In this document: positions 1,064 through 16,169 of the stretch, piece by piece
Numbering within the stretch: the first letter of the stretch is position 1
Layout: each line of letters starts with the position of its first letter
Origin: a virus
Lineage: Duplodnaviria; Heunggongvirae; Uroviricota; Caudoviricetes
Strand: one strand, 5' to 3'
Virus record (IMG/VR): IMGVR_UViG_2540341091_000001
Span: 1 to 16,169 of that record
Length of the DNA: 16,169 bases
Made by a program: the position numbers and the translations under genes
Notes under the pieces: generated by a model
Database searches by the model: none
Seen by the model: the letters and a program-made list of their open reading frames with translations, nothing else
What the model was told of the DNA's origin: nothing

Positions 1064-1078
1064 ATCCATAGTTTTAGT

Positions 1079-1348
1079 TTAGTTATATTTTTTTTCCGTT
1101 CTGACTTTTTCCCACTCAGCTCGCCCTTCTTCCCGTCTTTTGTCAATATATTCCGCAAGATCCTGAATGTTGATGCAGCGTTTTGCTTTTTGTGATGTAC
1201 CGATGCGATATGTAGGTACAGGCAACTTACAAGCGTTTGCTTTTGCTTCTGCTGTGGCTGGACTCATACCAAAGTATTTTTGACTAACTGCTGAGAGTTC
1301 AATGTTTGGGGTATTGAATTCAGCCATCAGTAAAAACAAGGTATTCAT
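1079..1348 (-). CDS. PrtN-like (pyocin-activator family) small DNA-binding regulator
   Basis: 89 aa; ATG at 1348 with GGAG 7 nt upstream; segment GMSPATAEAKANACKLPVPTYRIGTSQKAKRCINIQDLAEYIDKRR resembles the PrtN/phage activator family as I recall it. Confidence 0.5.
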   Translation of the reverse strand: MNTLFLLMAEFNTPNIELSAVSQKYFGMSPATAEAKANACKLPVPTYRIGTSQKAKRCINIQDLAEYIDKRREEGRAEWEKVRTEKKYN

Positions 1349-1384
1349 ATCATTTCTCCATCATAACCGGCTGCACCCGGTGAG

Positions 1385-2167
1385 TTACTTATTCATTTCA
1401 ATAATATTATTTTCTATCATTGATTTATTTAAAACCAAAGAAGGAGCAAGATGGTTGTCTATTTTAAACAATGCATAACTTTTAAACTGTTGGTGATATC
1501 CGTAACTAATAAGGATGCTAGAAAAATCTCTTAATTCATCTTCTTTTAAAAAATTAAAATGAAATGGGTTGTCACCATTTATGAACAATGAAACATCTAT
1601 TATGCAGTATTTCTCTCTGTTGTCATTTGCATAGAAAAAAATATAAGACATTCTGTTTGTTAAGACAATGCCATTAAATTTTCTTATGTCTGTAGCTATT
1701 TTGTTTTCCATGTTTGGTGCCACATATTTATTTTCAGAAATACATTTAATTTCATCTCCAGATGTCGTGATTATATAAAAATGAAACTTATCATAAATAT
1801 CTAACTTAACTACGCCATCATTATTATAAAGGCTGCTAAATTTTGGTGGTTCAACTTTTAAAGAATCATAGTTCTTTAAAAGAAGAGGGGAGTCAAATTT
1901 AATAACTTGTAGTATCCCTTTACCTTCAACCTCCATATTGATTGAAGATATAGCAATTGCATTATCTCTTTTATTATTCAGGATTATGGTTGATATATGC
2001 ATGTCATATATTCTACTTGCATTTGCTGAATACGACACTGTCACCTTTTTTGATATTTTTTGCACGCCAAAATATATAGTGAAGGCAGCGGCAAGAATAG
2101 ATAAGAATTTAATGTCAAATAAGGACCATAGCCACATTAGTTGCTCAATTGCTTCAGAGTTAATCAT
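1385..2167 (-). CDS. hypothetical protein with an N-terminal transmembrane anchor, AT-rich orphan (moron-like); start codon uncertain (alternatives at 2179 or 2221)
   Basis: Long minus-strand ORF in markedly AT-rich DNA. N-terminal hydrophobic helix LMWLWSLFDIKFLSILAAAFTIYFGV. The track start at 2221 is TTG and sits upstream of the promoter predicted at 2204-2232, so an internal ATG (MINSEAIEQ...) is preferred. No known domain recognised. Confidence 0.45.
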   Translation of the reverse strand: MINSEAIEQLMWLWSLFDIKFLSILAAAFTIYFGVQKISKKVTVSYSANASRIYDMHISTIILNNKRDNAIAISSINMEVEGKGILQVIKFDSPLLLKNYDSLKVEPPKFSSLYNNDGVVKLDIYDKFHFYIITTSGDEIKCISENKYVAPNMENKIATDIRKFNGIVLTNRMSYIFFYANDNREKYCIIDVSLFINGDNPFHFNFLKEDELRDFSSILISYGYHQQFKSYALFKIDNHLAPSLVLNKSMIENNIIEMNK

Positions 2168-2203
2168 TTGCTTTACCATTATCGCTGTAATACAACACAT
2201 GTG

Positions 2204-2232
2204 TATATATACGCAATGCAATTATTTTGCAA
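2204..2232 (-). promoter_or_regulatory. candidate sigma70 promoter for the 1385-2167 gene
   Basis: Minus strand reads TTGCAA (plus 2227-2232), 17-bp spacer, TATATA (plus 2204-2209). Confidence 0.3.
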
Positions 2233-2353
2233 GTGCTTCATTTACTATCAATAGCTTCGTCACGTTATTGTTTAATGGTTCTTTATAGGGGCGGCAATAG
2301 TTAAAATTATCGCTTCCGTAAACGCCCCCGCAGGGGCATTTGCAGTAATGAAA

Positions 2354-3178
2354 TCAGGCGGTGAAAGTACCAATAAAGGTTTCTACTTTGCTGTCTTTGA
2401 ATTTCTCAACAAGCAGATCACGAAATTCGTTAGCCATTTCTTCCTGTACCGCTTCCAGCTGAATAATGCGCAGAACCAGTACAGGACGATCGCCAGTGAT
2501 AATGCTGAGGCGTAATTTAAACGGACGTTCTTTCAGACCTTCAAACGGAGCGCATTTAAATTCAAATGCCACTGGCATAATGTCTTTGGTCTTCGCTTCG
2601 ACAGACTCCATCAGGGAGCGTTTGCCGCTGAAGTCATTATCTTCAAAATCAGCGGTCTGGTTCGCTTCAATTGTGATTTTACGGATCGCCGCAGCCGCTT
2701 TGGTTGCCTGAATGGCGTCACCATTAGCATCAAAGCCCACAAGGTAGTCGGCCCAGTCTTCAATCCATTCTGCCAGTGACTTCTGGGAGTTACGCTCGCC
2801 GTTAACAGACAACAGAGCAGAGAACGGTGCTGTCTTTTTCAGTTTGAGAGTGGCGGTGTTATCTGCGTGACCTGGTTCATCAATAGTACCCAGGTTAAGC
2901 ACACTGACGGCACGCATATTATCGGCATCGATAAAGCAGCGGGTGCCTTCATCTGCAAGAACTTTAGAATAACGGGTAAAGTCATCGATGCTGGCAGTGG
3001 AAAGCGCACCACGGAAACGGAAGCGATTTAAATTAAATTTTTCCAGATCATGAATGCGGAAATTCTCAGGCAATGCCACAGCATCGGCACCAATCTTACT
3101 GATAATTTCATTAACACCCTGAGCAGAAATAAGGGCATGGATTTGATTAATTGCGGTTGCGTCTAAGTTCTGAGACAT
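2354..3178 (-). CDS. phage protein resembling YfdQ (DUF2303 family)
   Basis: 274 aa, the same length as E. coli CPS-53 YfdQ as I remember it; ATG at 3178 with AGGA about 7 nt upstream. Homology not verified. Confidence 0.55.
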
Positions 3179-3242
3179 AATAAGTCCTCACTATATAAAG
3201 ATATTCAGTGATGAGATAAATAATCAGTTTATTAGAACGATA

Positions 3243-3605
3243 TTAACGACCTGCTGCGCGGAGTTTTCCGTCAGGTTCACCGGCAAGAGTCAGTAATTGT
3301 CCCTGGTCCTCCTGCAGAATAGTCAGGCGACCACCGCGATTGACATACATCGGCGTTTCGGTGGTGTCTTCTTCGGAAATTTTCCCGCGGTTAGTCGGGC
3401 GAACATATGAGAGTTTGTGTTTGATTTTCACACGGTTCTCATCAAATGGTTCGATTTCCAGGTTGAGTGAGACCTTACCTTTGGTTTTCGTGTTCATCAC
3501 ACCGGAAGCGACTTCACTGAGAACTGCGCCGATTTTGGTTTCAAATACGCCGCCGTCCAGCTCCCCGATAAATGCCTGCACATCAGTACTGCGTTCGCTA
3601 GCCAT
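3243..3605 (-). CDS. small phage protein (about 120 aa), possibly YfdP-like
   Basis: Internal ATG at 3605 (MASERSTDVQAF...) has a strong GAGGAG Shine-Dalgarno 5-10 nt upstream. The upstream extension in the ORF track (start 3836) runs through structured non-coding DNA and is rejected. Confidence 0.5.
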   Translation of the reverse strand: MASERSTDVQAFIGELDGGVFETKIGAVLSEVASGVMNTKTKGKVSLNLEIEPFDENRVKIKHKLSYVRPTNRGKISEEDTTETPMYVNRGGRLTILQEDQGQLLTLAGEPDGKLRAAGR

Positions 3606-3653
3606 TTTGCTGCTCCTCATCATATCGACCCTGCAAGGTCGGTTGGTTTCTCC

Positions 3654-3787
3654 ACAAAACAGAGAAGAACACCTGCGGTGGCAGCCGCCCGGATGGATTG
3701 GGTTATGAGCCCGTCGTCCGGTGATGCTCTTCTCTGTTTTGTAAAAAGAGCGGTACCAGCCGGAAGCAAGTGTACAAACTGGTACCG
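3654..3787 (-). repeat. two adjacent large inverted repeats (potential RNA stem-loops) in the leader upstream of the 3243-3605 gene
   Basis: Perfect 15-bp inverted repeat ACAAAACAGAGAAGA (3654-3668) / TCTTCTCTGTTTTGT (3728-3742) enclosing 59 nt. Perfect 9-bp inverted repeat CGGTACCAG (3751-3759) / CTGGTACCG (3779-3787) enclosing 19 nt. Confidence 0.4.
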
Positions 3788-4188
3788 CCAAAGCAGTGGC
3801 TGTTGTGGTGGGGTTGTCACTCAGGCGTATGGTCAACCTGACAATCCGGTGTCCTCAACGGGGAAAGAGTAACCCCGCCATACTTACCGCCGCGCCATTT
3901 CGCGGATTACCACAACGCTGAGAGCACTTAGCCAGTTACGGCACCACACTTTGTCGCGGTTCCATAAATGCCCTCATCGTTGCACCCTGGTCTCTTCCCA
4001 GGCGTCAAACCGGATCGCCACGCTGGTTAGGCGTCTTATCAGCATCATCATTGACTTGCACATTCCGGCTACCTGGTTTGTTTGCCCGAGCAAGGAGTGG
4101 ATTGTCCCCTTTAACGTCCCCAGACCGCTAACGACGCATGTGCCATACGCCGTGTTACAACCAAATTTAGTTTAATCTTGCCTGTGTT

Positions 4189-4233
4189 ATGTATCCTATA
4201 GATACATTATGTATCTCAAGGGTACATTGTCAA
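4189..4233 (-). promoter_or_regulatory. pL-like leftward promoter overlapped by two repressor operators
   Basis: Minus strand: TTGACA (plus 4228-4233), 16-bp spacer, CATAAT (plus 4206-4211). Operator-like 17-mers TGTATC-CTATA-GATACA (4190-4206) and TGTATC-TCAAG-GGTACA (4210-4226) share a consensus with the cI-cro intergenic sites. Confidence 0.45.
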
Positions 4234-4235
4234 GT

Positions 4236-4260
4236 ATAAAAAAACCTGCCGAAGCAGGTT
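4236..4260 (-). terminator. intrinsic terminator downstream of the cI-like gene
   Basis: Stem AACCTGC (4243-4249) / GCAGGTT (4254-4260), loop CGAA; the minus strand follows with a T-run (plus A-run 4236-4242). Confidence 0.5.
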
Positions 4261-4271
4261 ATAAATATTGA

Positions 4272-4946
4272 TTAGGCCTTTATTTTGTATCTTCTTGGTT
4301 TTCCTGAGAAAATCACTGTACCAATTATAGAGCAATTACCGTTGATCTTAATGTAAGGTTCAGGCCAGTTTGGGTTTAATGCTTTGAGGTAACGCTGTGT
4401 TCCATCTTCTATCAACCGCTTGAAGGTGGTTTCGCCTGTATCGTGCATCAATGCAATAACGTCGTCACCGTGGCAGGCAGGGACTTCAGGATCAACAAAA
4501 ATCATGTCTCCCGGGCGGTACTCATCAATCATTGAATCACCAATCACCCGCAAGATATAAGTCATTTCGCCACAGGGTACAGGGCAGGGATAAGTTTCTG
4601 CTGTGCTCAAATCAACCTCAGAATAGCCAACTTCTTTCCATGCTCCGGCCTGTACCCATGATATGACAGGGACTAACGTTATTTGTTTGTTAGTGATTGA
4701 AACGTCAGGTTTTTTTGTGATGTTCGTTGTCTGGTGTTCTTGATCAAGCCATCCGACAGGCAGGTCGAAACATTTTTCGATGTGCCGTGCCATGCTGTCA
4801 CCGATATTTTTAGTTGCACCATCTCCCATAAACCTGCTGGTCTGGGTTGGCTCGCGATCAATCATGGTGGCAAAGGAAGAATTCCCGCCAACACCATCTC
4901 TCAGTTTTCTGGCGTTAGACCGCCGGATGTCATGGACTGTTTTCAT
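4272..4946 (-). CDS. cI: cI-like prophage repressor: N-terminal HTH plus C-terminal S24 (LexA-like) autopeptidase domain
   Basis: 224 aa. C-terminal domain has the Ser (VIGDSM) and Lys (TFKRL) typical of S24 self-cleaving repressors. Divergent from a cro-like gene with operators between them. No Shine-Dalgarno before the ATG, consistent with a leaderless pRM-type transcript. Confidence 0.8.
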   Translation of the reverse strand: MKTVHDIRRSNARKLRDGVGGNSSFATMIDREPTQTSRFMGDGATKNIGDSMARHIEKCFDLPVGWLDQEHQTTNITKKPDVSITNKQITLVPVISWVQAGAWKEVGYSEVDLSTAETYPCPVPCGEMTYILRVIGDSMIDEYRPGDMIFVDPEVPACHGDDVIALMHDTGETTFKRLIEDGTQRYLKALNPNWPEPYIKINGNCSIIGTVIFSGKPRRYKIKA

Positions 4947-4963
4947 AAAGAAATTAAAACCTT

Positions 4964-5030
4964 TGTACCGATAAGGTACAAGTATCTTGAAGGTTCATCT
5001 CAATCATGTAATATGTATACCGGAGGTACA
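4964..5030. promoter_or_regulatory. oR-like operator cluster with divergent pRM/pR promoters
   Basis: 17-bp sites TGTACC-GATAA-GGTACA (4964-4980) and TGTATA-CCGGA-GGTACA (5014-5030), plus a degenerate site AGTATC-TTGAA-GGTTCA (4981-4997). Candidate pRM on minus strand TTGTAC-N17-TTTAAT ends about 7 nt before the cI ATG. The 5014-5030 site overlaps the cro RBS. Confidence 0.45.
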
Positions 5031-5036
5031 TGTTGT

Positions 5037-5258
5037 ATGAAAGCGTATTGGGACTCTTTAACCAAAGAACAGCAGGGTGAGTTGGCCGGAAAAGTTGGCT
5101 CAACACCAGGCTACTTACGGCTGGTTTTCAATGGTTATAAAAAAGCCAGTTTTGTGCTGGCTAAAAAACTTGAGCAATGCACGTCAGGTGCAATTACGAA
5201 ATCTGACTTAAGACCGGATATCCCACAGCCAGTATCAGCGATTTGCTGGTTGTGGTGA
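5037..5258 (+). CDS. Cro/YdaS-like small DNA-binding protein
   Basis: 73 aa from ATG 5037 with GGAGG at 5022-5026; HTH-like segment LAGKVGSTPGYLRLVFNGYKKASFVLAKKLEQCTSGAI. The longer track ORF (4734-5258) overlaps cI antisense and is rejected. Confidence 0.6.
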   Translation: MKAYWDSLTKEQQGELAGKVGSTPGYLRLVFNGYKKASFVLAKKLEQCTSGAITKSDLRPDIPQPVSAICWLW

Positions 5259-5313
5259 TGAAGAAATCCACAGCAGGTATCACGATTAGCTGAATTTTCA
5301 TAACCCATATGCG

Positions 5314-5337
5314 GGCGCCATTTCTGGCGCCTTTTTT
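5314..5337 (+). terminator. intrinsic terminator after the cro-like gene
   Basis: Stem GGCGCCA (5314-5320) / TGGCGCC (5325-5331), loop TTTC, then TTTTTT (5332-5337). Confidence 0.55.
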
Positions 5338-5361
5338 ATTGCAGAAAAGCGAGAGGTAATT

Positions 5362-5961
5362 ATGCGTAAACTTTATGCCGCCATTTTGTCCGCAGCCATC
5401 TGTCTGGCCGTATCCGGTGCGCCTGCATGGGCGTCTGAACATCAGTCCACGCTGAGCGCGGGCTATCTTCATGCCTCGACGAACGTTCCCGGCAGCGATG
5501 ATCTGAACGGGATTAACGTGAAATACCGTTATGAGTTTACGGACACACTAGGGCTGGTGACGTCATTCAGCTATGCAGGAGACAAGAATCGCCAGCTGAC
5601 TCATTACAGCGATACCCGCTGGCATGAAGATTCCGTGCGTAACCGCTGGTTCAGCGTGATGGCGGGGCCGTCTGTGCGCGTGAATGAATGGTTCAGCGCG
5701 TATGCGATGGCGGGTGTGGCTTACAGCCGTATTTCGACTTTCTCCGGGGATTATCTCCGCGTAACTGACAACAAGGGGAAAACGCACGAAGTGCTGACCG
5801 GAAGTGATGACGGTCGCCGCAGCAACACGTCTCTGGCGTGGGGGGCTGGCGTGCAGTTTAACCCGACCGTATCCGTGGCCATTGATATTGCTTATGAAGG
5901 CTCCGGCAGTGGCGACTGGCGCACTGACGGTTTCATCGTGGGTGTCGGTTATAAGTTCTGA
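5362..5961 (+). CDS. lom: Lom (Ail/Lom family outer-membrane protein), lambda lom homologue
   Basis: 199 aa with a signal peptide; C-terminus ...AYEGSGSGDWRTDGFIVGVGYKF matches lambda Lom as I remember it; internal INVKYRYE and SVMAGP motifs; RBS GAGAGG at 5351-5356. Confidence 0.85.
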   Translation: MRKLYAAILSAAICLAVSGAPAWASEHQSTLSAGYLHASTNVPGSDDLNGINVKYRYEFTDTLGLVTSFSYAGDKNRQLTHYSDTRWHEDSVRNRWFSVMAGPSVRVNEWFSAYAMAGVAYSRISTFSGDYLRVTDNKGKTHEVLTGSDDGRRSNTSLAWGAGVQFNPTVSVAIDIAYEGSGSGDWRTDGFIVGVGYKF

Positions 5962-5988
5962 TTAGCCAGGTAACACAGTGTTATGACA

Positions 5989-6014
5989 GCCCGCCGGTTC
6001 AGGCGGGCTTTTTT
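5989..6014 (+). terminator. intrinsic terminator between lom and the tail-fibre gene
   Basis: Stem GCCCGCC (5989-5995) / GGCGGGC (6002-6008) followed by TTTTTT (6009-6014). Confidence 0.55.
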
Positions 6015-6025
6015 GTGGGGTGAAT

Positions 6026-9000
6026 ATGGCAGTAAAGATTTCAGGTGTACTGAAAGACGGTGCAGGTAAACCGGTACAGAACTGCACAATCCAGCTGAAA
6101 GCAAAACGTAACAGCACCACGGTGGTGGTGAACACGGTGGCATCTGAAAATCCGGATGAAGCCGGGCGTTACAGCATGGACGTTGAGTACGGTCAGTACA
6201 GCGTTATTCTGTTGGTGGAAGGCTTCCCGCCATCGCATGCCGGGACCATCACCGTGTATGAAGACTCACAACCGGGTACGCTGAATGATTTTCTCGGTGC
6301 CATGACGGAGGATGATGCTCGTCCGGAGGCACTGCGCCGCTTTGAACTGATGGTGGAAGAGGTGGCGCGTAACGCGTCCGCAGTGGCACAGAACACGGCA
6401 GCCGCGAAGAAGTCAGCCAGCGATGCCAGCACATCAGCCCGGGATGCGTCGGCTTCAAAAGAGGCAGCAAAATCATCAGAAATGAGCGCAGCCTCTTCGG
6501 AAACGGCGGCAGGAAATTCCGCGAAGGCCGCAAAAACGTCTGAGACGAATGCGGATAACAGCGCACAGGCGGCAGCGGCCTCACAAACTGCATCGGCAAA
6601 CTACGCGACAGCCGCCAAAAAATCAGAAACCAACGCGAAAAATAGCGAGGCAGCAACAAAGAGCAGTGAAACAAACGCGGCGAAATCTGCGGCGGACGCA
6701 CTTAATTATCGCAACCAGGCGCAATTAATTGTTGGCGATAATATCGGTCTTGGCTCAGCCCCGCGTGATTGTCCTGATATTTCCGGCAACCCATCAGGGT
6801 ATATCGGATTTATGCGCATTATGAGTAATGCAAAAGGCTTTCCATCGATTGCATCCGGTGAAAGCAGTCTTACGGGGTTTATTAGTCAGGTAGATGGAAC
6901 ACCAGCGTATACAGGTGTATTTCAGGGATGGGCTACGCGCTCGCTTTATACTTATCGCTGGAATCCGACAATAGGCCCGCAATGGACACGCCACGCAAGA
7001 AAAGATGAGGTTATCCGATTTCAGCGTTCAAGCGACACAAGAACCATCATTTTATCTACTGACGTTCAGGCGGACGGCTGTTACTTACAGGTTGATGCTG
7101 ACGGTCAGTGGGGCGCATTTAACCCTAAAGCTGGTAGATGGCAACCGCTCGCAGTTGCGCAAGGTGGCACAGGGGCGAATGATGCAAGTACAGCGCGCTC
7201 TAAACTTGAAGTCATGTTTGAAGCAAAAACTGGCCTTGATGCGAATACGAACTTAAACGATATAAAAGGTACTACAGCCGGTTTTTATTACCAACCAATG
7301 TCTGCCAACGCAAAGCCAGAACTAAATTACCCGATACAGCTTGCTGGTGCATTGTTAGTGCAAAGAACTGGTGCTAATGGTAGTGATGGTTGTATCCAGA
7401 GCTATTTTGTATATAACAATTCATCAATTCTTTATAGAAGGATATATACCAGCACACAAGGTTGGAGTGTATGGAAAAAAATAGTATTAACAGAAAGAAT
7501 TGAAGAAGGCGAATCGACTACTTACGTTTATTCGAATTACTCACCATCAGCGCCACGACTTCAGGTGTCAACATCTGGATTGTGGGGTTGCCATAACGGA
7601 TCGTCATGGGTTCCATTACCTATTGGACAAGGAGGCACTAATGCGGCAACTGTTGATGGTGCCAGAACGAATCTTGGCTTAGGTAGGAACAACAGCCCTC
7701 AACTTAACAGTCTATTTCTTGATAGATATAGTGATTCGACCAATACATACACATCTAGTGGAATTCTCCATACAAGACTGTTAGCAACTGACAGCACTGT
7801 GCGTCTTGGTGCTGATATGTATGTTGAGACTTTATCAAATGAGCCAGGTCAATTAACAATAAGGTTTACATACGATGGTTCAACTGGTGCTTCAAAATAT
7901 CTAAACCTTAACTCAGAAGGTAATTTAATTGTAGATAGTGCGATACTGAGATCAACGGTTGAAAAACCTTTACAAATAAGGAGCGCTAACCCAGCAATAA
8001 GATTTAATGAAACAGATCGCCCGGCTAACACGCCTACTTATACTCTCATTGCTAATGCTGGTGACTGGTTTATTCAGAAACGCGATTATGATGATGCCGG
8101 AAGCGTTAGTAACGCAATTGCATATAATTTCGCAAACGACAGAATTGATGTGCAAAATCTTAAAGCGTCTGGGTTAATTACAGCTAACTCAGGAATCGCA
8201 ACATTAACAGGTCATGACTGGAACGCTCAGCATACTGATAACGTCGACAAATTTAGACCAATTGCAGGCAGTACAAACGGCCCGGCAGGCTCTATGGTTC
8301 TTGGCGGCATTCATGTTCAATTTAGTAAAAATTATGCTGTGCAGTTCGGAGGCCGCAATTCCGGTTTTTGGGGAAGAACAATTGAAAATGGAACGACGCA
8401 GGAATGGAAGAAATTACTAACAGTAGACGATCTCAATTCATCTACCGATCTTGCTGTCAGGTCATTAACCACATCTAACCCGGTAAAATCTGGCGGAGGG
8501 CGAATTGATGTCCTTGGAAGCACGTCAGACTATAGCAAAATGGATTGCTTTGTACGTGGGTTTGATAGCACCGGTAATTCTCTCGCGTGGGCGTTGGGTT
8601 CATCAGTCGGCGTAAGTAAGATGCTGTCGCTAAAAAATTTCTTTAGCGGAGCTGAGATACTGCTAAATGGTAATGACGGCGCGGTTCAACTCAAAACAGG
8701 TGCTGTTAACGGTGCTAAAGCGCAGGCGCTCACTATCAACAAGGATGAGGTTAACTCAACTGTTGATTTAACTCTTACAAAACAAACAGGGACTGGCAAT
8801 CGTTTTGTTTTACAGAACTTAGGTAATACAGAACTACCATTTGCTGTCAAGGTGTGGGGTTCAGGTGATCGACAAAACGTTTTTGAGGTTGGAACGTCTG
8901 CCGCGTATCTGTTTTATGCTCAAAAAACATCGTCAGGTCAGCTGTTTGATGTAAACGGTGCTATTAACTGTACAACACTGAATCAGTTATCAGACCGCGA

Positions 9001-9367
9001 GCTGAAAGACAATATTCAGATTATCAGTGACGCAACCGAAGCTATCCGTAAAATGAACGGGTACACCTACACACTTAAGGAAAACGGACTGCCTTACGCT
9101 GGTGTTATTGCACAGGAAGCAATGGAGGCAATACCGGAAGCGGTAGGCTCATTCACTCATTACGGTAAAGAGTTGCAGGGACCAACGGTTGACGGCAATG
9201 AATTACGTGAAGAAACACGTTATCTGAATGTTGACTACGCCGCCGTGACGGGCTTACTTGTTCAGGTCGCCCGTGAAACAGATGATCGCGTTACCGCGCT
9301 GGAAGAAGAAAACGCAGAATTAAAACAAAGATTATCTGCAATTGAGGCGGCGCTTGCCTCTAAATAA
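6026..9367 (+). CDS. stf: side tail fibre: lambda Stf-like N-terminus, divergent central/distal region, C-terminal intramolecular-chaperone (peptidase S74-like) domain
   Basis: N-terminus MAVKISGVLKDG...GRYSMDVEYGQYSV...HAGTITVYEDSQPGTLNDFL is near-identical to lambda Stf as I recall it. Real ATG is 6026 (the track begins at a GTG at 6020). C-terminal 125 aa (SDRELKDNI...TALEEENAELKQRL) resemble the self-cleaving chaperone domain of endosialidase-type fibres. Confidence 0.85.
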   Translation: MAVKISGVLKDGAGKPVQNCTIQLKAKRNSTTVVVNTVASENPDEAGRYSMDVEYGQYSVILLVEGFPPSHAGTITVYEDSQPGTLNDFLGAMTEDDARPEALRRFELMVEEVARNASAVAQNTAAAKKSASDASTSARDASASKEAAKSSEMSAASSETAAGNSAKAAKTSETNADNSAQAAAASQTASANYATAAKKSETNAKNSEAATKSSETNAAKSAADALNYRNQAQLIVGDNIGLGSAPRDCPDISGNPSGYIGFMRIMSNAKGFPSIASGESSLTGFISQVDGTPAYTGVFQGWATRSLYTYRWNPTIGPQWTRHARKDEVIRFQRSSDTRTIILSTDVQADGCYLQVDADGQWGAFNPKAGRWQPLAVAQGGTGANDASTARSKLEVMFEAKTGLDANTNLNDIKGTTAGFYYQPMSANAKPELNYPIQLAGALLVQRTGANGSDGCIQSYFVYNNSSILYRRIYTSTQGWSVWKKIVLTERIEEGESTTYVYSNYSPSAPRLQVSTSGLWGCHNGSSWVPLPIGQGGTNAATVDGARTNLGLGRNNSPQLNSLFLDRYSDSTNTYTSSGILHTRLLATDSTVRLGADMYVETLSNEPGQLTIRFTYDGSTGASKYLNLNSEGNLIVDSAILRSTVEKPLQIRSANPAIRFNETDRPANTPTYTLIANAGDWFIQKRDYDDAGSVSNAIAYNFANDRIDVQNLKASGLITANSGIATLTGHDWNAQHTDNVDKFRPIAGSTNGPAGSMVLGGIHVQFSKNYAVQFGGRNSGFWGRTIENGTTQEWKKLLTVDDLNSSTDLAVRSLTTSNPVKSGGGRIDVLGSTSDYSKMDCFVRGFDSTGNSLAWALGSSVGVSKMLSLKNFFSGAEILLNGNDGAVQLKTGAVNGAKAQALTINKDEVNSTVDLTLTKQTGTGNRFVLQNLGNTELPFAVKVWGSGDRQNVFEVGTSAAYLFYAQKTSSGQLFDVNGAINCTTLNQLSDRELKDNIQIISDATEAIRKMNGYTYTLKENGLPYAGVIAQEAMEAIPEAVGSFTHYGKELQGPTVDGNELREETRYLNVDYAAVTGLLVQVARETDDRVTALEEENAELKQRLSAIEAALASK
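6380..6710 (+). repeat. in-frame Ala/Ser/Thr-rich tandem peptide repeats within stf
   Basis: Translation shows repeated units such as AAKTSETNADNS, AAKKSETNAKNS, ATKSSETNAAKS, as in lambda Stf. Confidence 0.4.
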
Positions 9368-9373
9368 TATTAA

Positions 9374-9396
9374 GGGGCTGTGCGCCCCGTTTTATT
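9374..9396 (+). terminator. putative intrinsic terminator after stf
   Basis: Stem GGGGC (9374-9378) / GCCCC (9384-9388) followed by GTTTTATT. Confidence 0.4.
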
Positions 9397-9403
9397 GGGT
9401 AGG

Positions 9404-9697
9404 ATGAAAATGGGTATAACACCTTTCCTTCATGCACTTTGTGCTGTGGCTGCGCAGATACTGGTGGGGCTTTTTACCGGAAACTGGGTTTACGGAGCGA
9501 TAGCCAGTTGTACGTTCTTCATTGCGGGCGAACACACCCAAGCATAATATCGCTGGATTGAAATGTTCGGGCATGGCAAGCGGATTAACATGCCGTGGTG
9601 GGGCGGTTTTGATCCACGCGCATGGGATGTGGCAAGCCTGATGGATTTTGCTGTGCCGATGGTAGCGTGTCTTCTGATCTGGCTGTTGATCCGTTGA
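9404..9697 (+). pseudogene. small hydrophobic (membrane) protein gene interrupted by an in-frame TAA at 9545-9547
   Basis: Frame from ATG 9404 gives MKMGITPFLHALCAVAAQILVGLFTGNWVYGAIASCTFFIAGEHTQA, then TAA, then continues in the same frame for 49 codons (YRWIEMFGHGKRINMPWWGGFDPRAWDVASLMDFAVPMVACLLIWLLIR) to TGA at 9695-9697. Not in the ORF track because each half is under 60 aa. Confidence 0.35.
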
Positions 9698-9705
9698 ACA
9701 TAAAA

Positions 9706-9741
9706 AGCCGCAGCAACTTGCCATGGCAGGATACTGCGGCT
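9706..9741. terminator. putative bidirectional terminator between the small membrane-protein gene and the convergent RT gene
   Basis: 8-bp stem AGCCGCAG (9706-9713) / CTGCGGCT (9734-9741) with a 20-nt loop containing the palindrome TGCCATGGCA; A-run upstream and T-rich DNA downstream. Confidence 0.3.
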
Positions 9742-9804
9742 GGTTTGTGAGTTTAAATAGTGTGTTTATTGCGATATATTTTAATGACTTAATGGATTAC
9801 ATAT

Positions 9805-10668
9805 CTATGATATTCCTGAAATATCCTCTTCAAGCTCTTTTACTGATTTCGCAATTTTAAATTTAAACTTCCTCTCTATTTCACTATTGCTAAGTTTTTT
9901 TTCCTTCTCTTTACCTATCCACATAGAAACAAGTTCTCGTTTCTGAGATATATGTAGATTGTCAAAGTTAGGTATGTATTTAAAAGTCTCCGCTCTACCT
10001 CTGCGGAGTTCATAGAAAGTTTTAATCAAAGATTTTGGTTTTATTTCTGATGAAAGGCCGAATCGGCGGATAAGATTATTGATAGTATGATTAACAGAGC
10101 GAAGTTGAGCTGTTGAGGTTATTTGTGAGAAGTACGATACCCATCCCAATCGTTTACCTTCAAACACACATCCCGTAATTCTGAGATTTAGTTTCCACTG
10201 ACAATATGCAACAGCTCGTTCTTTATCACGCTTACTTTTAGCTTGTAGTAGAGCGTGCCTATATGCAGTAAAAATTTTTGCTAAGGATGACTCAAATCTA
10301 AGAATGCTCTCATGTTTTATCAATAATTCTCGATTTTCTATGTGGTATCCCAAAAAGTTAAAACTTTCATCCAAACTGCCTACTTTGGATTTTGAGTTCT
10401 CTTCATTTAATGGATGTGGGTTTAAATTTAATGATTGAAGCTTATCAATGATATGAGAAGCTATTTTTGTTGCTTGATATTTTGGTGTTAAAATAAGAAT
10501 GTCATCAACGTATCGCATGTACCATATGTCATGCATTTTATTGATTTCATCATCGAAATTAGATAGTGATATTTCAGCTAAAATGTTTGATATCGCTAAT
10601 CCCTGAGGTACTCCTCTGGTATTATTAGGGATACCTTTGCTTCCTGTGGTTCCACTTACAGTAGGCAC
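9805..10668 (-). CDS. reverse transcriptase, C-terminal segment (motifs 3-7 and a 170-aa C-terminal extension); in the -1 frame relative to the N-terminal segment
   Basis: Translation has GVPQGLAISNILAEI (motif 3/4), YMRYVDDILIL (the YxDD active site) and FNFLGYHI (motif 7). The track start is a GTG; this frame is open upstream to a TAG at 10708-10710, so it spans the A6G site of the upstream segment. Confidence 0.8.
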   Translation of the reverse strand: MPTVSGTTGSKGIPNNTRGVPQGLAISNILAEISLSNFDDEINKMHDIWYMRYVDDILILTPKYQATKIASHIIDKLQSLNLNPHPLNEENSKSKVGSLDESFNFLGYHIENRELLIKHESILRFESSLAKIFTAYRHALLQAKSKRDKERAVAYCQWKLNLRITGCVFEGKRLGWVSYFSQITSTAQLRSVNHTINNLIRRFGLSSEIKPKSLIKTFYELRRGRAETFKYIPNFDNLHISQKRELVSMWIGKEKEKKLSNSEIERKFKFKIAKSVKELEEDISGIS

Positions 10669-10685
10669 GATTAATGATGATGTTA

Positions 10686-11174
10686 TTAACTGTCTAATTT
10701 CTTTTTTCTAATTTTATTTTTTATTGCATTAATTATCAATTTATGTTCAATTGAAGGATAGAAACTTTTAAGATCTATTTTTGCATATTCAGCATATAGA
10801 CTGTTGTTTAATGCTTCTTTCAATGAGTCAATTACTGTATGTGGTAGTTTTAATCTGGACTTAGGATATATTTCCGTAAGGCATTCACAGAGAGCTCTAA
10901 GAGTAATTCTGTCCCTAGCAGTTGGTATGGAAATCTGTCTGGGTGTAGAGTTAGCGCCTTTAGATATTAATTTTTCTTTATATGCTGTAAATTTGTAATT
11001 GCCAGAATTAACCTTTTCAAAAATGAAAGTGATCTCATTTTTTATTGTCAAATCAAGTTTTGATGGGCGAATCCGATCTATGCCAATCGCTCCTGATTCT
11101 TTGATTTTTTCAGAGTATACTTTTAGAAGATTTTTTTTCGAGAATGACTTTTTAAAAATTCTGCTTGCAGTCAT
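10686..11174 (-). CDS. reverse transcriptase, N-terminal segment (fingers, motifs 1-2); frame ends 15 nt after an A_AAA_AAG heptamer
   Basis: ATG at 11174 (the track begins at a TTG at 11180). Motifs GIDRIRPSKL, PRQISIPTARDRITLRAL and AKIDLKSFYPSI. Start overlaps the 3' end of the upstream membrane-protein gene by 23 nt. Confidence 0.75.
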   Translation of the reverse strand: MTASRIFKKSFSKKNLLKVYSEKIKESGAIGIDRIRPSKLDLTIKNEITFIFEKVNSGNYKFTAYKEKLISKGANSTPRQISIPTARDRITLRALCECLTEIYPKSRLKLPHTVIDSLKEALNNSLYAEYAKIDLKSFYPSIEHKLIINAIKNKIRKKKLDS

Positions 11175-11703
11175 AGTCAATCCAAAGATATATTAATGGG
11201 AGTATATAAAGTGCGGCAGTAATAAATATTCGAAGTAATATCCATAAAATAACAATTATTTTTTCTTTTTGTGTGGGGATCCTCGTCTTAAGTCCAACTT
11301 GAGTTACCCTTGAAATTTTATCATCTATGTCACGGTGATTCTCAACCTCATTGAGCAAATTAAAATATTTTTCTTTCTGTTCAAGAGATAACTGTTGACT
11401 GGTGGTAATGTCAAAATAGAGTCGCTGTAGTGCAATATAATTCCTTCTCATGGCTATTGCTCGACCACGAAAATCTAGGTTAGATACGATCAGAGAAATA
11501 CCCAGTAGAGCCACTGAAAGTATCGCCGCAACGACATCTGTATTATCTCCTAGAACCTTTGGAAATCGCAACGTTACAATTGAAAGTACCGCACTCAATA
11601 TAGCATACCAAACGAGGATAAATTGAGAGTGTTTTTCAAGCCATTCTAGTCGATGGTGCGCTTGGATACGTGCTTTATATGTAAACCAAATATTGTCATG
11701 CAT
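11152..11703 (-). CDS. multi-pass membrane protein (two N-terminal TM helices plus a C-terminal hydrophobic helix), possibly SLATT-like; candidate effector partner of the RT
   Basis: 183 aa; hydrophobic segments FILVWYAILSAVLSIVTL, VVAAILSVALLGISLIVS and IIVILWILLRIFITAALYILPLIYLW around a charged helical middle. Translationally coupled to the RT. SLATT assignment is an unverified guess from architecture. Confidence 0.6.
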   Translation of the reverse strand: MHDNIWFTYKARIQAHHRLEWLEKHSQFILVWYAILSAVLSIVTLRFPKVLGDNTDVVAAILSVALLGISLIVSNLDFRGRAIAMRRNYIALQRLYFDITTSQQLSLEQKEKYFNLLNEVENHRDIDDKISRVTQVGLKTRIPTQKEKIIVILWILLRIFITAALYILPLIYLWIDYDCKQNF

Positions 11704-11727
11704 AAAAGATCCTTTTTAAAAGCGGAA

Positions 11728-11808
11728 GGGGCAGGATATATTGGAACCGTTGAACATCCTGCCCGGCAGGATCAGTGAGCATAAGCTCAACAGTAAAATA
11801 TTACTGTT
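11728..11808 (-). other. structured 5' leader of the membrane-protein/RT operon (candidate cis-regulatory RNA or RT-associated ncRNA)
   Basis: 9-bp stem GGGCAGGAT (11728-11736) / ATCCTGCCC (11755-11763) with an 18-nt loop; 20-bp palindrome AACAGTA-AAATAT-TACTGTT (11789-11808). Confidence 0.3.
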
Positions 11809-11865
11809 CATTATCAGAGCCGCCCTTGCATGCGCAAGAGGAAAAACCTGCCCCATCCCTTTGAA

Positions 11866-11894
11866 TTATTACAATTTAATGATCTTAAAGTCAA
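11866..11894 (-). promoter_or_regulatory. candidate sigma70 promoter for the membrane-protein/RT operon
   Basis: Minus strand TTGACT (plus 11889-11894), 17-bp spacer, TAATAA (plus 11866-11871); about 30 bp from the IS2 left end. Confidence 0.3.
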
Positions 11895-12015
11895 TACAAG
11901 TGAATGGTGTCCAGAGATGATGAATAGACTGGCCCCCTGAATCTCCAGACAACCAGTATCACTTAAATAAGTGATAGTCTTAATACTAGTTTTTAGACTA
12001 GTCATTGGAGAACAG

Positions 12016-12381
12016 ATGATTGATGTCTTAGGGCCGGAGAAACGCAGACGGCGTACCACACAGGAAAAGATCGCAATTGTTCAGCAGAGCTTTGAACCGG
12101 GGATGACGGTCTCCCTCGTTGCCCGGCAACATGGTGTAGCAGCCAGCCAGTTATTTCTCTGGCGTAAGCAATACCAGGAAGGAAGTCTTACTGCTGTCGC
12201 CGCCGGAGAACAGGTTGTTCCTGCCTCTGAACTTGCTGCCGCCATGAAGCAGATTAAAGAACTCCAGCGCCTGCTCGGCAAGAAAACGATGGAAAATGAA
12301 CTCCTCAAAGAAGCCGTTGAATATGGACGGGCAAAAAAGTGGATAGCGCACGCGCCCTTATTGCCCGGGGATGGGGAGTAA
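12016..12381 (+). CDS. insC: IS2 transposase OrfA (InsC)
   Basis: [41 protein letters not shown]... is the IS2 InsC sequence; ATG 12016 with GGAG at 12007-12010. The track ORF from 11971 is an upstream extension. Confidence 0.9.
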
Positions 12382-13244
12382 GCTTAGTCAGCCGTTGTCT
12401 CCGGGTGTCGCGTGCGCAGTTGCACGTCATTCTCAGACGAACCGATGACTGGATGGATGGCCGCCGCAGTCGTCACACTGATGATACGGATGTGCTTCTC
12501 CGTATACACCATGTTATCGGAGAGCTGCCCACGTATGGTTATCGTCGGGTATGGGCGCTGCTTCGCAGACAGGCAGAACTTGATGGTATGCCTGCGATCA
12601 ATGCCAAACGTGTTTACCGGATCATGCGCCAGAATGCGCTGTTGCTTGAGCGAAAACCTGCTGTACCGCCATCGAAACGGGCACATACAGGCAGAGTGGC
12701 CGTGAAAGAAAGCAATCAGCGATGGTGCTCTGACGGGTTCGAGTTCTGCTGTGATAACGGAGAGAGACTGCGTGTCACGTTCGCGCTGGACTGCTGTGAT
12801 CGTGAGGCACTGCACTGGGCGGTCACTACCGGCGGCTTCAACAGTGAAACAGTACAGGACGTCATGCTGGGAGCGGTGGAACGCCGCTTCGGCAACGATC
12901 TTCCGTCGTCTCCAGTGGAGTGGCTGACGGATAATGGTTCATGCTACCGGGCTAATGAAACACGCCAGTTCGCCCGGATGTTGGGACTTGAACCGAAGAA
13001 CACGGCGGTGCGGAGTCCGGAGAGTAACGGAATAGCAGAGAGCTTCGTGAAAACGATAAAGCGTGACTACATCAGTATCATGCCCAAACCAGACGGGTTA
13101 ACGGCAGCAAAGAACCTTGCAGAGGCGTTCGAGCATTATAACGAATGGCATCCGCATAGTGCGCTGGGTTATCGCTCGCCACGGGAATATCTGCGGCAGC
13201 GGGCTTGTAATGGGTTAAGTGATAACAGATGTCTGGAAATATAG
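12339..13244 (+). CDS. insD: IS2 transposase OrfB (InsD), normally made as an OrfAB fusion by -1 frameshift at A6G (12333-12339)
   Basis: 301-aa DDE-type integrase-fold protein matching IS2 InsD; slippery A_AAA_AAG at 12333-12339 lies in the orfA/orfB overlap. Confidence 0.9.
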
Positions 13245-13260
13245 GGGCAAATCCATGAAC

Positions 13261-13509
13261 TTAATGAACAAACCACTCGTCAGCAGACTCCCAGGTATCT
13301 TTCAGAGTCTCCTGAACAAAAGTTTTAGCTGAATCTTTATCAGCGGTGCGCGTAACAGAAAGGCCATCGTTGCTGGTGGCTTTTACGATCACTTCTACAT
13401 CGTCATAACGTTTACTGATGCGTCGGGTTAATTCTTCCTTTAACGCATCCACAGCACCGGTTGGCATTTTAGTCATTTTTTCTTTGGCTATGCAGATTTC
13501 AATACGCAT
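13261..13509 (-). CDS. dinI: DinI-like SOS-inducible protein (prophage-borne)
   Basis: 82 aa [37 protein letters not shown]...[11 protein letters not shown] resembles DinI; GGGGA Shine-Dalgarno 5 nt upstream; LexA boxes immediately upstream. Confidence 0.8.
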
Positions 13510-13523
13510 AAAAGTCCCCTACA

Positions 13524-13567
13524 CTGTATTTGTATACAGTATTATTTTTAACTGTATGGATAAACAG
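13524..13567 (-). promoter_or_regulatory. two tandem LexA (SOS) boxes in the dinI-like promoter region
   Basis: CTGTATTTGTATACAG (13524-13539) and CTGTATGGATAAACAG (13552-13567) both fit CTGT-N8-ACAG; the first, with flanks, is near-palindromic ACTGTAT...ATACAGTA. Confidence 0.7.
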
Positions 13568-13569
13568 TG

Positions 13570-14667
13570 TCAAGAGGTCTTATTTCTGCTCCTTTGGAGT
13601 TCTTCAAAACGATTATGTAAAGATTTCGGATACAGTTCGGTATATACCTGCCATAGCACGTTTAATGAACGATGCCCTGTAACCTGAGCGACTTCCTCAA
13701 TACTAAAACCAGCCTCAAATAAGCGACTTGCCCCTTCTCTACGCAAATCATGGTATCTCAGATCTTTAATACCTAATTTGCTTCTTACCCTCTGAAATCC
13801 TGCGGTAACAGAAGTGCTGTTATATGGAAAAATGAATTCTGATTTTTTGGGTTGTCGCTGGACGATATCCCAGGCTTCCCCAAGCAAGGCAACTTTCATA
13901 TGGTTGCCTTCCTTTTTACGTGGATCTTTCCTGTCTCTTACTAGTATAGATTTTTGTTCCTGGTCGAGATCTTCCCATCGTAACCGGCATACTTCTCCGA
14001 TTCGCATACAGGACCACACAGAAAATTTGAGGATATCAACGAACGGAATTTTTGAGCATTTATGAGTAGATCGTTGTTGAAGGCCTTCAATGAGCATGTT
14101 CAGTTCATCAGATGCTGGTCTACGATTACGACGGTTTGATTTACCAATCAAACCGAGTTTAAGTAGATATGGACGAGCGCTTTTCGCCGGGTTTGATGTG
14201 TAATTGATTCCGTATACAGGTTTTGCCGCATCCAGAACACTGCCAAGATAACTAACATCGTGGCTGACTGTTGCTGGGCCTGCACCAGCGTTGTTTCTTA
14301 GCCTGCAATGTTCAATTACGTCATTTTCTGTCAGTTCAGATAGTTTGATCGCGGAGATGTCACTATCCATAAGCAGTTCCAGCACATATCTTTTAGTACG
14401 GCCTGCTTTACCTCCGGCATTTGGGTCATTTAAATATTTGTGTAGTAAGTCACGGACTGTAAGTCCGTCAACAGCATTTGATGATGGAATGCCATATAGA
14501 TCTAATTCCATCACTTTCTGTGCGCCCCATGTTTTGGCATGAGCATGTTTAGGGAATGTTTTGCTTTCCCTGTAAGTGATAACACCTTTTTCTTTGATAA
14601 TCACATTACAGCGATAGCGTGGTGTGCCATCGGATTTTAGTCGTTTCTCTATGTTATAGTACGCCAT
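13570..14667 (-). CDS. int: tyrosine recombinase / phage integrase, dusA-associated type
   Basis: 365 aa; C-terminal catalytic region with RYHDLRREG, HRS and conserved Tyr (WQVYTELY). Divergent from and directly adjacent to the 5' end of dusA. GAGG Shine-Dalgarno 7 nt upstream of ATG 14667. Confidence 0.9.
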   Translation of the reverse strand: MAYYNIEKRLKSDGTPRYRCNVIIKEKGVITYRESKTFPKHAHAKTWGAQKVMELDLYGIPSSNAVDGLTVRDLLHKYLNDPNAGGKAGRTKRYVLELLMDSDISAIKLSELTENDVIEHCRLRNNAGAGPATVSHDVSYLGSVLDAAKPVYGINYTSNPAKSARPYLLKLGLIGKSNRRNRRPASDELNMLIEGLQQRSTHKCSKIPFVDILKFSVWSCMRIGEVCRLRWEDLDQEQKSILVRDRKDPRKKEGNHMKVALLGEAWDIVQRQPKKSEFIFPYNSTSVTAGFQRVRSKLGIKDLRYHDLRREGASRLFEAGFSIEEVAQVTGHRSLNVLWQVYTELYPKSLHNRFEELQRSRNKTS

Positions 14668-14755
14668 TACACGACCTCGTTATTTCGGGTTCCCATAAAG
14701 CGTGGGAACCTGTGCGGGAACCTAACGCGAGAAAAATAGCCTGAAATGTTCAAAA

Positions 14756-15793
14756 ATGCACGATAATCCTGAAACACAGAAAACTAATCAAACCAGCGTG
14801 ATGCCTGAAAAAACTGGCGCTTACTGGAGTTCTCGGTTTAGCATTGCTCCTATGCTCGACTGGACGGACAGACATTGCCGCTATTTCTTGCGTCTGCTTT
14901 CCCGCAATACGTTGCTGTATACCGAAATGGTGACCACAGGGGCGATTATTCACGGTAAAGGTGATTACCTGGCGTACAGTGAAGAAGAACATCCGGTAGC
15001 GTTGCAACTCGGCGGTAGCGATCCGGCGGCGCTGGCACAGTGTGCGAAGCTGGCAGAAGCGCGTGGATATGATGAGATCAACCTGAATGTCGGCTGCCCG
15101 TCTGACCGGGTGCAGAACGGCATGTTTGGTGCGTGTCTGATGGGTAATGCGCAGCTGGTTGCCGACTGCGTGAAAGCGATGCGCGATGTGGTGTCGATTC
15201 CAGTGACGGTGAAAACGCGTATTGGCATCGATGACCAGGACAGCTATGAATTTCTCTGCGATTTCATCAACACCGTTTCCGGCAAAGGCGAGTGTGAGAT
15301 GTTTATCATCCACGCACGTAAAGCCTGGCTTTCGGGGTTAAGCCCGAAAGAAAACCGTGAAATCCCGCCGCTCGATTATCCGCGTGTGTATCAACTGAAG
15401 CGTGACTTTCCGCATCTGACAATGTCGATTAACGGTGGTATCAAGTCGCTGGAAGAGGCCAAAGCACACCTGCAACATATGGATGGCGTGATGGTCGGGC
15501 GCGAGGCGTATCAGAATCCGGGTATTCTGGCGGCGGTAGACCGGGAGATCTTTGGTTCCTCGGATACCGATGCCGATCCAGTGGCGGTAGTGCGCGCCAT
15601 GTATCCGTACATTGAGCGTGAACTCAGCCAGGGGACGTATCTCGGCCATATTACCCGGCATATGTTGGGCTTGTTCCAGGGTATTCCTGGCGCGCGGCAG
15701 TGGCGGCGTTATTTAAGTGAAAATGCCCATAAAGCGGGTGCAGACATTAATGTGCTGGAACACGCGCTCAAACTGGTGGCGGATAAGCGTTAA
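14756..15793 (+). CDS. dusA: tRNA-dihydrouridine synthase A; 5' end probably contributed or reconstituted by the integrated element (alternative start ATG 14801)
   Basis: Translation matches E. coli DusA throughout ([37 protein letters not shown], ...ALKLVADKR); followed by pspG as in the E. coli chromosome. Confidence 0.9.
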
Positions 15794-15875
15794 CTTTTCA
15801 CCAAAAAGTAGTCAAATTCACCACGCCCTGCGCACCGTCGCGGGGCATTTTGCTGTTAAATCAATAGATTATTTT

Positions 15876-15890
15876 TGGCATGATTCTTGT
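15876..15890 (+). promoter_or_regulatory. candidate sigma54 (-24/-12) promoter of pspG
   Basis: TGGCAT-GATTC-TTGT approximates the TGGCAC-N5-TTGC sigma54 consensus (GT instead of GC at -13/-12), about 35 nt upstream of the pspG ATG. Confidence 0.35.
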
Positions 15891-15926
15891 AATGCCAGCA
15901 AGAGATTTCATATTTGGGAGAGCATC

Positions 15927-16169
15927 ATGCTGGAACTACTTTTTGTGTTTGGCTTTTTTGTCATGCTGATGGTCACCGGCGTTTCGTTGCTGGGCATTAT
16001 CGCCGCGCTGGTTGTGGCGACGGCCATTATGTTCCTCGGCGGTATGCTGGCATTGATGATTAAGTTGCTGCCGTGGTTACTACTGGCGATTGCGGTGGTG
16101 TGGGTTATTAAGGCGATTAAAGCACCAAAAGTGCCGAAATATCAGCGTTATGACCGCTGGCGTTACTAA
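15927..16169 (+). CDS. pspG: phage shock protein G
   Basis: 80 aa MLELLFVFGFFVMLMVTGVSLLGIIAALVVATAIMFLGG...KYQRYDRWRY; RBS GGGAGAG at 15915-15921. The track ORF from 15717 is an upstream extension. Confidence 0.85.
   Translation: MLELLFVFGFFVMLMVTGVSLLGIIAALVVATAIMFLGGMLALMIKLLPWLLLAIAVVWVIKAIKAPKVPKYQRYDRWRY

Follow-up and report, generated by a model that had tools for sequence, protein, structure and literature searches.

An IS2 element between a dinI-like gene and a DRT10 defense module in a degraded lambdoid prophage of Escherichia coli

The IS2 element and its prophage setting

The window, that is, the whole stretch of DNA analyzed here (16,169 nucleotides; positions 1 to 16,169 of the IMG/VR record IMGVR_UViG_2540341091_000001), carries a dinI-like gene and a reverse transcriptase (RT) module on its minus strand, and an insertion sequence lies between the two on the plus strand. 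The features of the locus are collected in Table 1.

Table 1. Features of the window at and around the IS2 insertion, ordered by position.
Feature	Coordinates	Strand	Basis and details
Intrinsic terminator, hairpin followed by UUUUU	9700-9741	-	-21.3 kcal/mol, z = -3.83; 64 nt past the RT stop codon
DRT10 reverse transcriptase gene (UG17)	9805-11174	-	PADLOC RT_UG17; split by a one-base deletion
DRT10 SLATT effector gene, 183 aa, intact	11152-11703	-	Pfam SLATT_5, E = 1.3e-28; PADLOC RTasSLATT, E = 1.5e-56
DRT10 template ncRNA, ~135 nt	11724-11859	-	Covariation; basal stem, four internal stem-loops, template loop
Predicted DRT10 ncRNA/operon promoter	11865-11894	-	TTGACT (-35, 11894-11889), 18-nt spacer, TG-extended AATAAT
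Left target-duplication copy, ATGAA	11920-11924	.	Single ATGAA in empty sites, ATGAA on both sides in filled relatives
IS2 (IS3 family), complete element	11925-13255	+	99.9% full-length identity to annotated IS2 copies
IS2 IRL, 42 bp	11925-11966	+	Inverted-repeat search; start TAGACTGG; terminal TA
IS2 orfA/orfB (OrfAB transposase)	12016-13244	+	ATG of orfA at 12016; end of orfB at 13244
IS2 IRR, 41 bp	13215-13255	+	Inverted-repeat search; 3' end AATCCA; reverse complement begins TGGATTTG
Right target-duplication copy	13255-13259	.	First A shared with the terminal A of IS2; alignment to relatives L001 and L023
Prophage dinI-like gene, 82 aa	13261-13509	-	Pfam DinI, E = 1.1e-19; annotated in relatives as DinI-like family protein
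Predicted dinI promoter	13524-13573	-	Promoter scan: TTGACA 13573-13568, AAAAAT 13549-13544
Prophage tyrosine integrase gene	13570-14667	-	Pfam Phage_integrase; dusA adjacent in the annotation of relatives; marks the prophage end

The insertion sequence is an intact IS2, as the initial annotation had it: the full element, both terminal repeats, both open reading frames and the frameshift window between them were found. It shares with the IS2 of Escherichia coli the length of 1331 bp, the terminal repeats, orfA and orfB with the A6G window for -1 frameshifting (AAAAAAG, 12333-12339), the DDE (rve) domain and the 5-bp target duplication. No substantial difference was seen, except that the window copy alone lacks one A at the boundary of IRR and the target duplication. 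Pfam recognized HTH_Tnp_1, HTH_21, rve and rve_3 in its reading frames, an identical copy bears the RefSeq label of an IS2 transposase with programmed frameshift, and matching copies are annotated as "IS3-like element IS2". An IRL of 42 bp ending in TA and an IRR of 41 bp ending in CA, forming imperfect repeats, are part of the definition of IS2 (PMC3299598). The same work places a weak, inward-facing promoter, P_IRL, just inside IRL, together with a binding site for OrfA (PMC3299598); by our own reading, P_IRL would correspond here to TGaTAGTCT at about 11972-11980. The outward -35 element that IS2 uses in the minicircle junction promoter sits within IRR (PMC3299598, PMC9330008). Across 5426 complete E. 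coli genomes, 4853 carry IS2, with a median of four copies and a maximum of 41; intergenic IS2 is common, and as an insertion event the present one is ordinary.

The predicted promoter of the dinI-like gene is overlapped, at both its -35 and its -10 element, by two predicted LexA boxes, each of them perfect (13524-13539 and 13552-13567). A search of the whole window for CTGT-N8-ACAG returned two matches against 0.19 expected, both at this promoter, which supports the predicted LexA control of the gene proposed in the initial annotation. Beyond dinI lies the integrase gene, next to which relatives carry dusA; this side of the window therefore represents the integrase end of a dusA prophage, and the host element is a degraded lambdoid prophage.

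The DRT10 module and its template RNA

Judged by its sequence, the module beside IS2 is the known anti-phage defense system DRT10, which consists of a UG17 reverse transcriptase, a SLATT protein and a template ncRNA. The combination of a UG17 RT with SLATT has been characterized as DRT10 in two studies (PMC12632851; bioRxiv 10.64898/2026.04.29.721553). In the window, the PADLOC RT_UG17 profile is matched by two successive open reading frames, one over profile positions 1-160 (E = 4e-59) and the other over positions 179-429 (E = 2e-93), and the RT carries a YVDD motif. The SLATT protein is 100% identical to WP_000543834.1, and its gene overlaps that of the RT by 23 nt. The part of the PMC12632851 supplement that lists UG17 loci contains near-identical SLATT and RT proteins; among the rows listed in the supplements of that paper, neither the RefSeq accessions nor the ncRNA sequence had a match. 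A retron was considered as well, given an RT, a structured RNA and a protein with two transmembrane segments; it was rejected, as the two RT_UG17 E-values stand against about 1e-4 for the retron RT models.

The order ncRNA, SLATT, RT is that of the SLATT-RT arrangement of DRT10 (UG17-A in the 2026 preprint). Unlike DRT10 as described, the window has an RT broken by a one-base deletion, which occurs in this sequence alone, and an IS2 element 30 bp upstream of the promoter. The co-directional array of dinI, a non-coding stretch, a membrane-protein gene and an RT that the initial annotation had drawn thus stands in its layout, with the module now identified as DRT10. The putative DRT10 promoter was the top-scoring minus-strand site of the promoter scan, with 10 of 12 matches and a TG extension. 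Its hexamers stop 6 nt upstream of the first base of the ncRNA, for which a 5' end near 11858 is predicted. Relatives in Xenorhabdus, Photorhabdus and Pseudomonas have a -10-like element at the equivalent place ahead of their ncRNA.

The non-coding stretch, previously taken for a 220-bp leader, is corrected here to the DRT10 template ncRNA of about 135 nt with a promoter of its own, on the grounds of covariation and of the published architecture. The DRT10 papers describe a template ncRNA of 137-143 nt directly upstream of SLATT and under its own promoter (PMC12632851; bioRxiv 10.64898/2026.04.29.721553), and the position and architecture of the RNA in the window agree with this description. 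To analyze its structure, 17 sequences were aligned, comprising 14 loci of other genera (RT identity 58-84%), the window and two E. coli variants. In the consensus fold, a long basal stem encloses four stem-loops, and a single-stranded loop comes after them; standard pairs fill 98.5% of its cells, and compensatory changes occur in 15 of the 35 pairs. None of 500 shuffled controls reached any of the observed values, and pairing fell to about 50% when the 3' partners were slid by 1-3 columns. A search of the whole window against Rfam 15 at gathering thresholds gave no match; as there is no Rfam family for the DRT10 ncRNA, it was recognized by comparison and covariation.

The template loop of the window, CAACGGUUCCAAU, occupies positions 11752-11740, single-stranded and ahead of the 3' arm of the basal stem, and displays the A-B-A' pattern CAA-CGGUUC-CAA. 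In the E. coli CE10 variant (98% DNA identity), the loop reads CAAUGAUUC, which is exactly the published Eco3 template; the cDNA repeat reported for Eco3DRT10 has 9 nt, and CAAUGAUUC is its reverse complement. In contrast to Eco3DRT10, the window has CAACGGUUC-CAA, with two bases different, and its predicted cDNA repeat is therefore GAACCGTTG; an alternative register would give 8-mers of the GTTCAACG type. Eco3DRT10 is probably the closest studied relative of the window locus, a view based on the published 9-nt template in the CE10 variant and on the C-terminal serine 456 of the RT. S456 has been reported as the priming residue of Eco3DRT10, and the intact RT of the window's relatives is likewise 456 aa long with a C-terminal serine. 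Tandem-repeat cDNA synthesis and phage defense have been demonstrated for Eco1-3DRT10 and for the E3659 system (PMC12632851; bioRxiv 10.64898/2026.04.29.721553).

Filled and empty sites and the RT frameshift

To find the site without the element, the two IS2 flanks were joined and compared with E. coli genomes. Strain AR434 has such an empty site (...GATGATGAACTTAATG...), which is 4 bases shorter than the joined flanks; strain 6409 likewise has one. This DRT10 variant is present in 187 complete E. coli genomes; 181 of them have an uninterrupted junction between the ncRNA and dinI, and three more carry IS2. Filled sites were searched for with a query across the left junction in the 5426 complete E. 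coli genomes, and three were found: MS20649, EC130 and OW848980, each with an IS2 of 1331 bp and ATGAA on each side. The pentamer is single in the empty sites and doubled in the filled ones, which bears out the target duplication that had been suggested from the window alone, and the comparison with prophages lacking IS2, proposed at the same time, recovered the predicted empty site. The distances given in the initial annotation were also confirmed, the dinI stop codon (13261-13263) being 5 bp off the IS2 end and the -35 hexamer found in the promoter scan being separated from the left end of IS2 by 30 bp.

At the right junction, relatives read CCAATGAA and the window reads CCATGAA, that is, one A fewer. 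The IS2 copy of the window and those of the three genomes are otherwise identical. Either the duplication copy in the window has four of its five bases, or the element is 1330 bp long. Because this A is missing, the right duplication copy shares an A with the IS2 end; with the shared A assigned to IS2, the element still terminates in CA and the right copy reads TGAA. The same insertion is already annotated in the three public genomes, just as DRT10 itself has already been characterized. MS20649 was from human blood in Finland, EC130 from a pig in China and OW848980 from a human in Spain.

Repeats are a frequent cause of misassembly, and IS2, a multicopy element (median 4, maximum 41 per genome), might have been put in the wrong place in the window by the assembler. 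We regard this as hardly credible: three independent complete genomes have these junctions, and in them the 5 bp that occur once in empty sites are perfectly duplicated; both junctions of the window run on into unique flanks. The insertion is common to four independent sequences and is therefore taken as genuine and not as an assembly artifact.

Over 10-17 kb around the site, identity among the IS2-bearing genomes is complete or nearly so, and the empty-site strain AR434 matches at 100% across 6.5 kb on the side of dinI. The extent of prophage deletion differs among the IS2-bearing genomes, the window having a fourth pattern of its own, with lom joined to the repressor region; no complete E. 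coli genome is an exact match to the window. The near-identity of the flanks and the match to AR434 indicate a single, recent insertion restricted to one sublineage, with further decay of the prophage afterwards.

The RT gene is split ahead of the YVDD motif by the shortening of a coding-strand A7 run to A6 (T6 on the plus strand at 10702-10707, T7 in relatives). The frameshift reported in the initial annotation is thus present in the window, yet it is private to it and may be an error. Among the 187 genomes with this RT, none has the frameshift and all have the intact frame, including MS20649, EC130 and OW848980, which encode an intact 456-aa RT (WP_001678535.1). Between 5218 and 16169, only two things set the window apart from OW848980, the RT deletion and the A lost at the IS2 junction. 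Over the left 5.2 kb, the window has one further deletion of a single base relative to MS20649 (AA to A near 3234), and one substitution. In all, about 15 kb compared with the closest relative contain one substitution and three deletions of one base. This excess of deletions over substitutions is the pattern expected of consensus errors, and, with the RT frame intact in all 187 genomes, the RT frameshift is probably an assembly error. The deletions of the window could instead reflect real slippage, and the frameshift a real mutation in the source strain. A_AAA_AAG is the classical -1 slippery heptamer; the A6 allele, if real, would carry it in the zero frame, and slippage by -1 at this point would give back the exact wild-type protein sequence. 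The frameshift should be treated with caution and not be taken as biology without resequencing.

The initial annotation had linked the IS2 insertion with the frameshift and read the two together as signs of a module being silenced or costly. Silencing or decay of a costly module would fit the splitting of the window RT ahead of its YVDD motif, the heavy degradation of the surrounding prophage and the IS1 inside the SLATT gene of strain 510016, and DRT10-type loci can be toxic under exonuclease SbcB repression (bioRxiv 10.64898/2026.04.29.721553). However, no functional part of DRT10 is hit by IS2, so that the insertion itself gives no ground for speaking of silencing or cost; the junction between leader and dinI is uninterrupted in 181 of the 187 genomes, and the ratio of deletions to substitutions is that of consensus errors. 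We therefore find this explanation very unlikely. The link between the two lesions is not supported either: as the other three IS2 carriers encode an intact RT and the deletion is found in 0 of 187 genomes, we treat the insertion and the frameshift as separate events.

Possible transcription between dinI and DRT10

Compared with L024, a dusA prophage without DRT10, the cassette amounts to about 2155 bp in place of 35 bp; the two sequences become homologous again precisely at the dinI stop codon. In a prfC prophage, the same interval is occupied by a serine acetyltransferase gene. Since the contents of this slot vary, DRT10 is cargo beside a resident dinI. The dinI-DRT10 array was found in prophages at several attachment sites (dusA, prfC and near yecD/aspS), and about 1600 genomes carry this dinI without DRT10. 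As a conserved partner of DRT10, dinI was rejected: no homologue was found in up to 3 kb of upstream DNA at any of 14 DRT10 loci in other genera (Xenorhabdus, Photorhabdus, Buttiauxella, Pseudomonas, Stutzerimonas). The dinI-RT linkage on which the initial annotation had relied is thus consistent within E. coli; the roughly 1600 genomes and the 14 loci without it partly bear out the refuting observation that the same annotation had named.

The intrinsic terminator downstream of the RT gene has a counterpart in L024, in which the same strong hairpin and U-run lies about 63 nt past dinI (homology boundaries L024/L002). Between dinI and SLATT, no minus-strand intrinsic terminator is predicted in the empty site. 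The cassette therefore separates dinI from the terminator that comes after it in prophages without DRT10, which makes read-through architecturally plausible; SOS-driven transcription from dinI into DRT10 before the insertion is a plausible consequence. One alternative fold of the 3' part of the ncRNA has a hairpin of 11 bp with a U-rich stretch after it, and the structure of the ncRNA could by itself terminate or process transcripts coming from dinI.

We propose the following course of events. IS2 entered the 31-bp spacer that separates the dinI stop codon from the -35 element of the DRT10 promoter. Until then, transcripts from the presumably SOS-inducible dinI promoter could have crossed the ncRNA, SLATT and RT as far as the shared terminator. 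The inserted IS2 parts dinI from DRT10 by 1.3 kb of sequence, antisense and untranslated, which should stop most read-through, and it also parts dinI from that terminator. Expression of DRT10 from its own promoter should continue, since this promoter, the 30 bp preceding its -35 element, the ncRNA and both genes all lie outside IS2 and are untouched. Most likely, IS2 just cuts off the transcription arriving from dinI. We infer all three elements of this scheme, namely earlier read-through, its loss upon insertion and the continued autonomous expression of DRT10, from the sequence. IS2 is classically known for its polarity in gal, and here too it lies within a transcription unit, so that polarity is expected. 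The scan of the minus strand inside IS2 detected no intrinsic terminator; any block would therefore have to be Rho-dependent.

The initial annotation had suggested that IS2 re-wires the expression of the module through its adjacent end. This was not supported, as the end next to DRT10 is IRL, with P_IRL directed into the element, and IRR, with the outward -35, faces the 3' end of dinI. The element might nevertheless shift DRT10 expression actively, up or down, by having replaced the DNA upstream of about -67, by an effect of P_IRL as a divergent promoter or on supercoiling, or through binding of OrfA at IRL. The IS2 end is just 30 bp from the -35, and P_IRL and the OrfA site just inside IRL would form with the DRT10 promoter a back-to-back pair about 105 bp apart. 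Fusion promoters of IS2 are known at ampC, acrEF and neoR (PMC9330008), where, as here, IS2 lies immediately upstream of the gene or module concerned. In contrast to those cases, IRL and not IRR faces the module, the module keeps an intact promoter, and the prediction gave no fusion promoter. The outward -35 in IRR points away from DRT10; the core promoter is native, as are the 30 bp ahead of its -35, where UP elements usually lie; and the promoter scan returned no new promoter-like site at either IS2 junction and none on the minus strand within the element. A fusion promoter at the IS2 ends was also considered by eye and rejected, since the hexamer at a distance of 17 bp from the -35 of IRR resembles a -10 poorly, matching it at 2-3 of 6 positions. 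An active change of DRT10 expression by IS2 is, in our view, unlikely.

Together, these results make it probable that a recent, lineage-restricted IS2 came to lie between a LexA-controlled dinI and its DRT10 cargo, leaving the parts of the module unbroken and cutting off read-through, and that the RT frameshift is a separate matter.

A wider proposal can be attached to this picture, although we rate it as rather unlikely. DRT10 in E. coli lambdoid prophages may lie inside the LexA-controlled dinI unit, so that DNA damage or prophage induction would raise the ncRNA, SLATT and RT by read-through, and the IS2-bearing locus would be a natural uncoupled mutant. If this were true, a telomerase-like defense system would be coupled to the SOS response. 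Neither of the two DRT10 papers (PMC12632851; bioRxiv 10.64898/2026.04.29.721553) mentions SOS, LexA or DinI, and a link between DNA damage and DRT10 would thus be one that they do not describe. Strains near-identical at the locus, with and without IS2, form a natural pair suited to testing transcription from dinI into DRT10.

The position of the cassette resembles that of the cargo genes ("morons") of lambdoid prophages at the tail-fiber/integrase end, as it likewise occupies a variable slot, here between the tail-fiber genes and dinI. Unlike typical morons, it brings its own promoter without a terminator of its own, lying between dinI and the terminator found after dinI in prophages that lack the cassette.

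Template loop and fold of the ncRNA

The template loop of the DRT10 ncRNA in the window reads CAACGGUUC-CAA and differs at two bases from the published template of Eco3DRT10, probably its closest studied relative, CAAUGAUUC-CAAU, which is present in E. coli CE10. By homology, the 9-mer GAACCGTTG is the predicted cDNA repeat of the window system. The loop also allows an alternative 8-nt register, GUUC-AACG-GUUC, with a longer re-annealing segment of 4 nt.

The last ncRNA stem-loop of the E. coli and Xenorhabdus variants has as its 3' arm GGGCAGG, a second copy of the basal stem's 5' arm; this repeat is absent from the Pseudomonas relatives. Because of this duplication, folding of the single sequence favours another structure, a hairpin of 11 bp with CUUCCGCUUUU after it, and the region could act as a switch from the ncRNA fold to one resembling a terminator, or back.

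Features of the DRT10 module, its surroundings and compared loci
Feature	Location	Strand	Remarks
DRT10 ncRNA	11724-11859	-	template loop at 11740-11752
GGGCAGG repeat and alternative hairpin	11724-11772	-	possible fold switch
A7-to-A6 deletion in RT gene	10696-10709	-	A_AAA_AAG
Hairpin and U-run terminator	9700-9741	-	3' of RT gene; strong, -21.3 kcal/mol
Same hairpin, L024 (dusA prophage without DRT10)	about 3398-3435		directly after dinI
Prophage gene content	1-5400		Panacea-domain gene, PrtN-like and YfdQ-like genes, S24 (CI/LexA-like) repressor
Prophage junction	around 5212-5222
IS1 insertion in SLATT gene, L005 (E. coli 510016, NZ_CP025851.1)	5236-6027		same DRT10 variant as window

The frameshifted RT allele and single-base differences

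The deletion in the RT gene generates, in the zero frame, a -1 slippery heptamer of the dnaX/IS type, at which a -1 slip would, judging by the reading frames, yield exactly the wild-type RT sequence. If the deletion is real, the A6 allele might therefore be leaky. Compared with MS20649, a complete genome carrying the same IS2 insertion, the window has lost a single base at a third place (AA to A, about 3234) and has one substitution (positions given for the two: 3200 and about 3234), both in intergenic DNA far from the IS2 site. These differences add to an impression that the single-base deletions of the window may be sequence errors. Single-base length differences of the DRT10 module also occur in other assemblies, as two genomes, W137 and CT265, match it over a span that exceeds the usual 2121 by one base.

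Cassette placement, prophage remnant and a separate insertion

The same terminator hairpin stands after RT in the window and after dinI in the prophage lacking DRT10, which places the DRT10 cassette between dinI and the terminator. The prophage is a remnant, in which the Panacea-domain, PrtN-like, YfdQ-like and S24 repressor genes are fused directly to the DNA immediately preceding lom and the tail-fibre gene; its deletion pattern is distinct in each of the four IS2-bearing genomes. The IS1 insertion in SLATT of E. coli 510016 is a separate event in another strain, and the dinI adjoining the interrupted gene is truncated.
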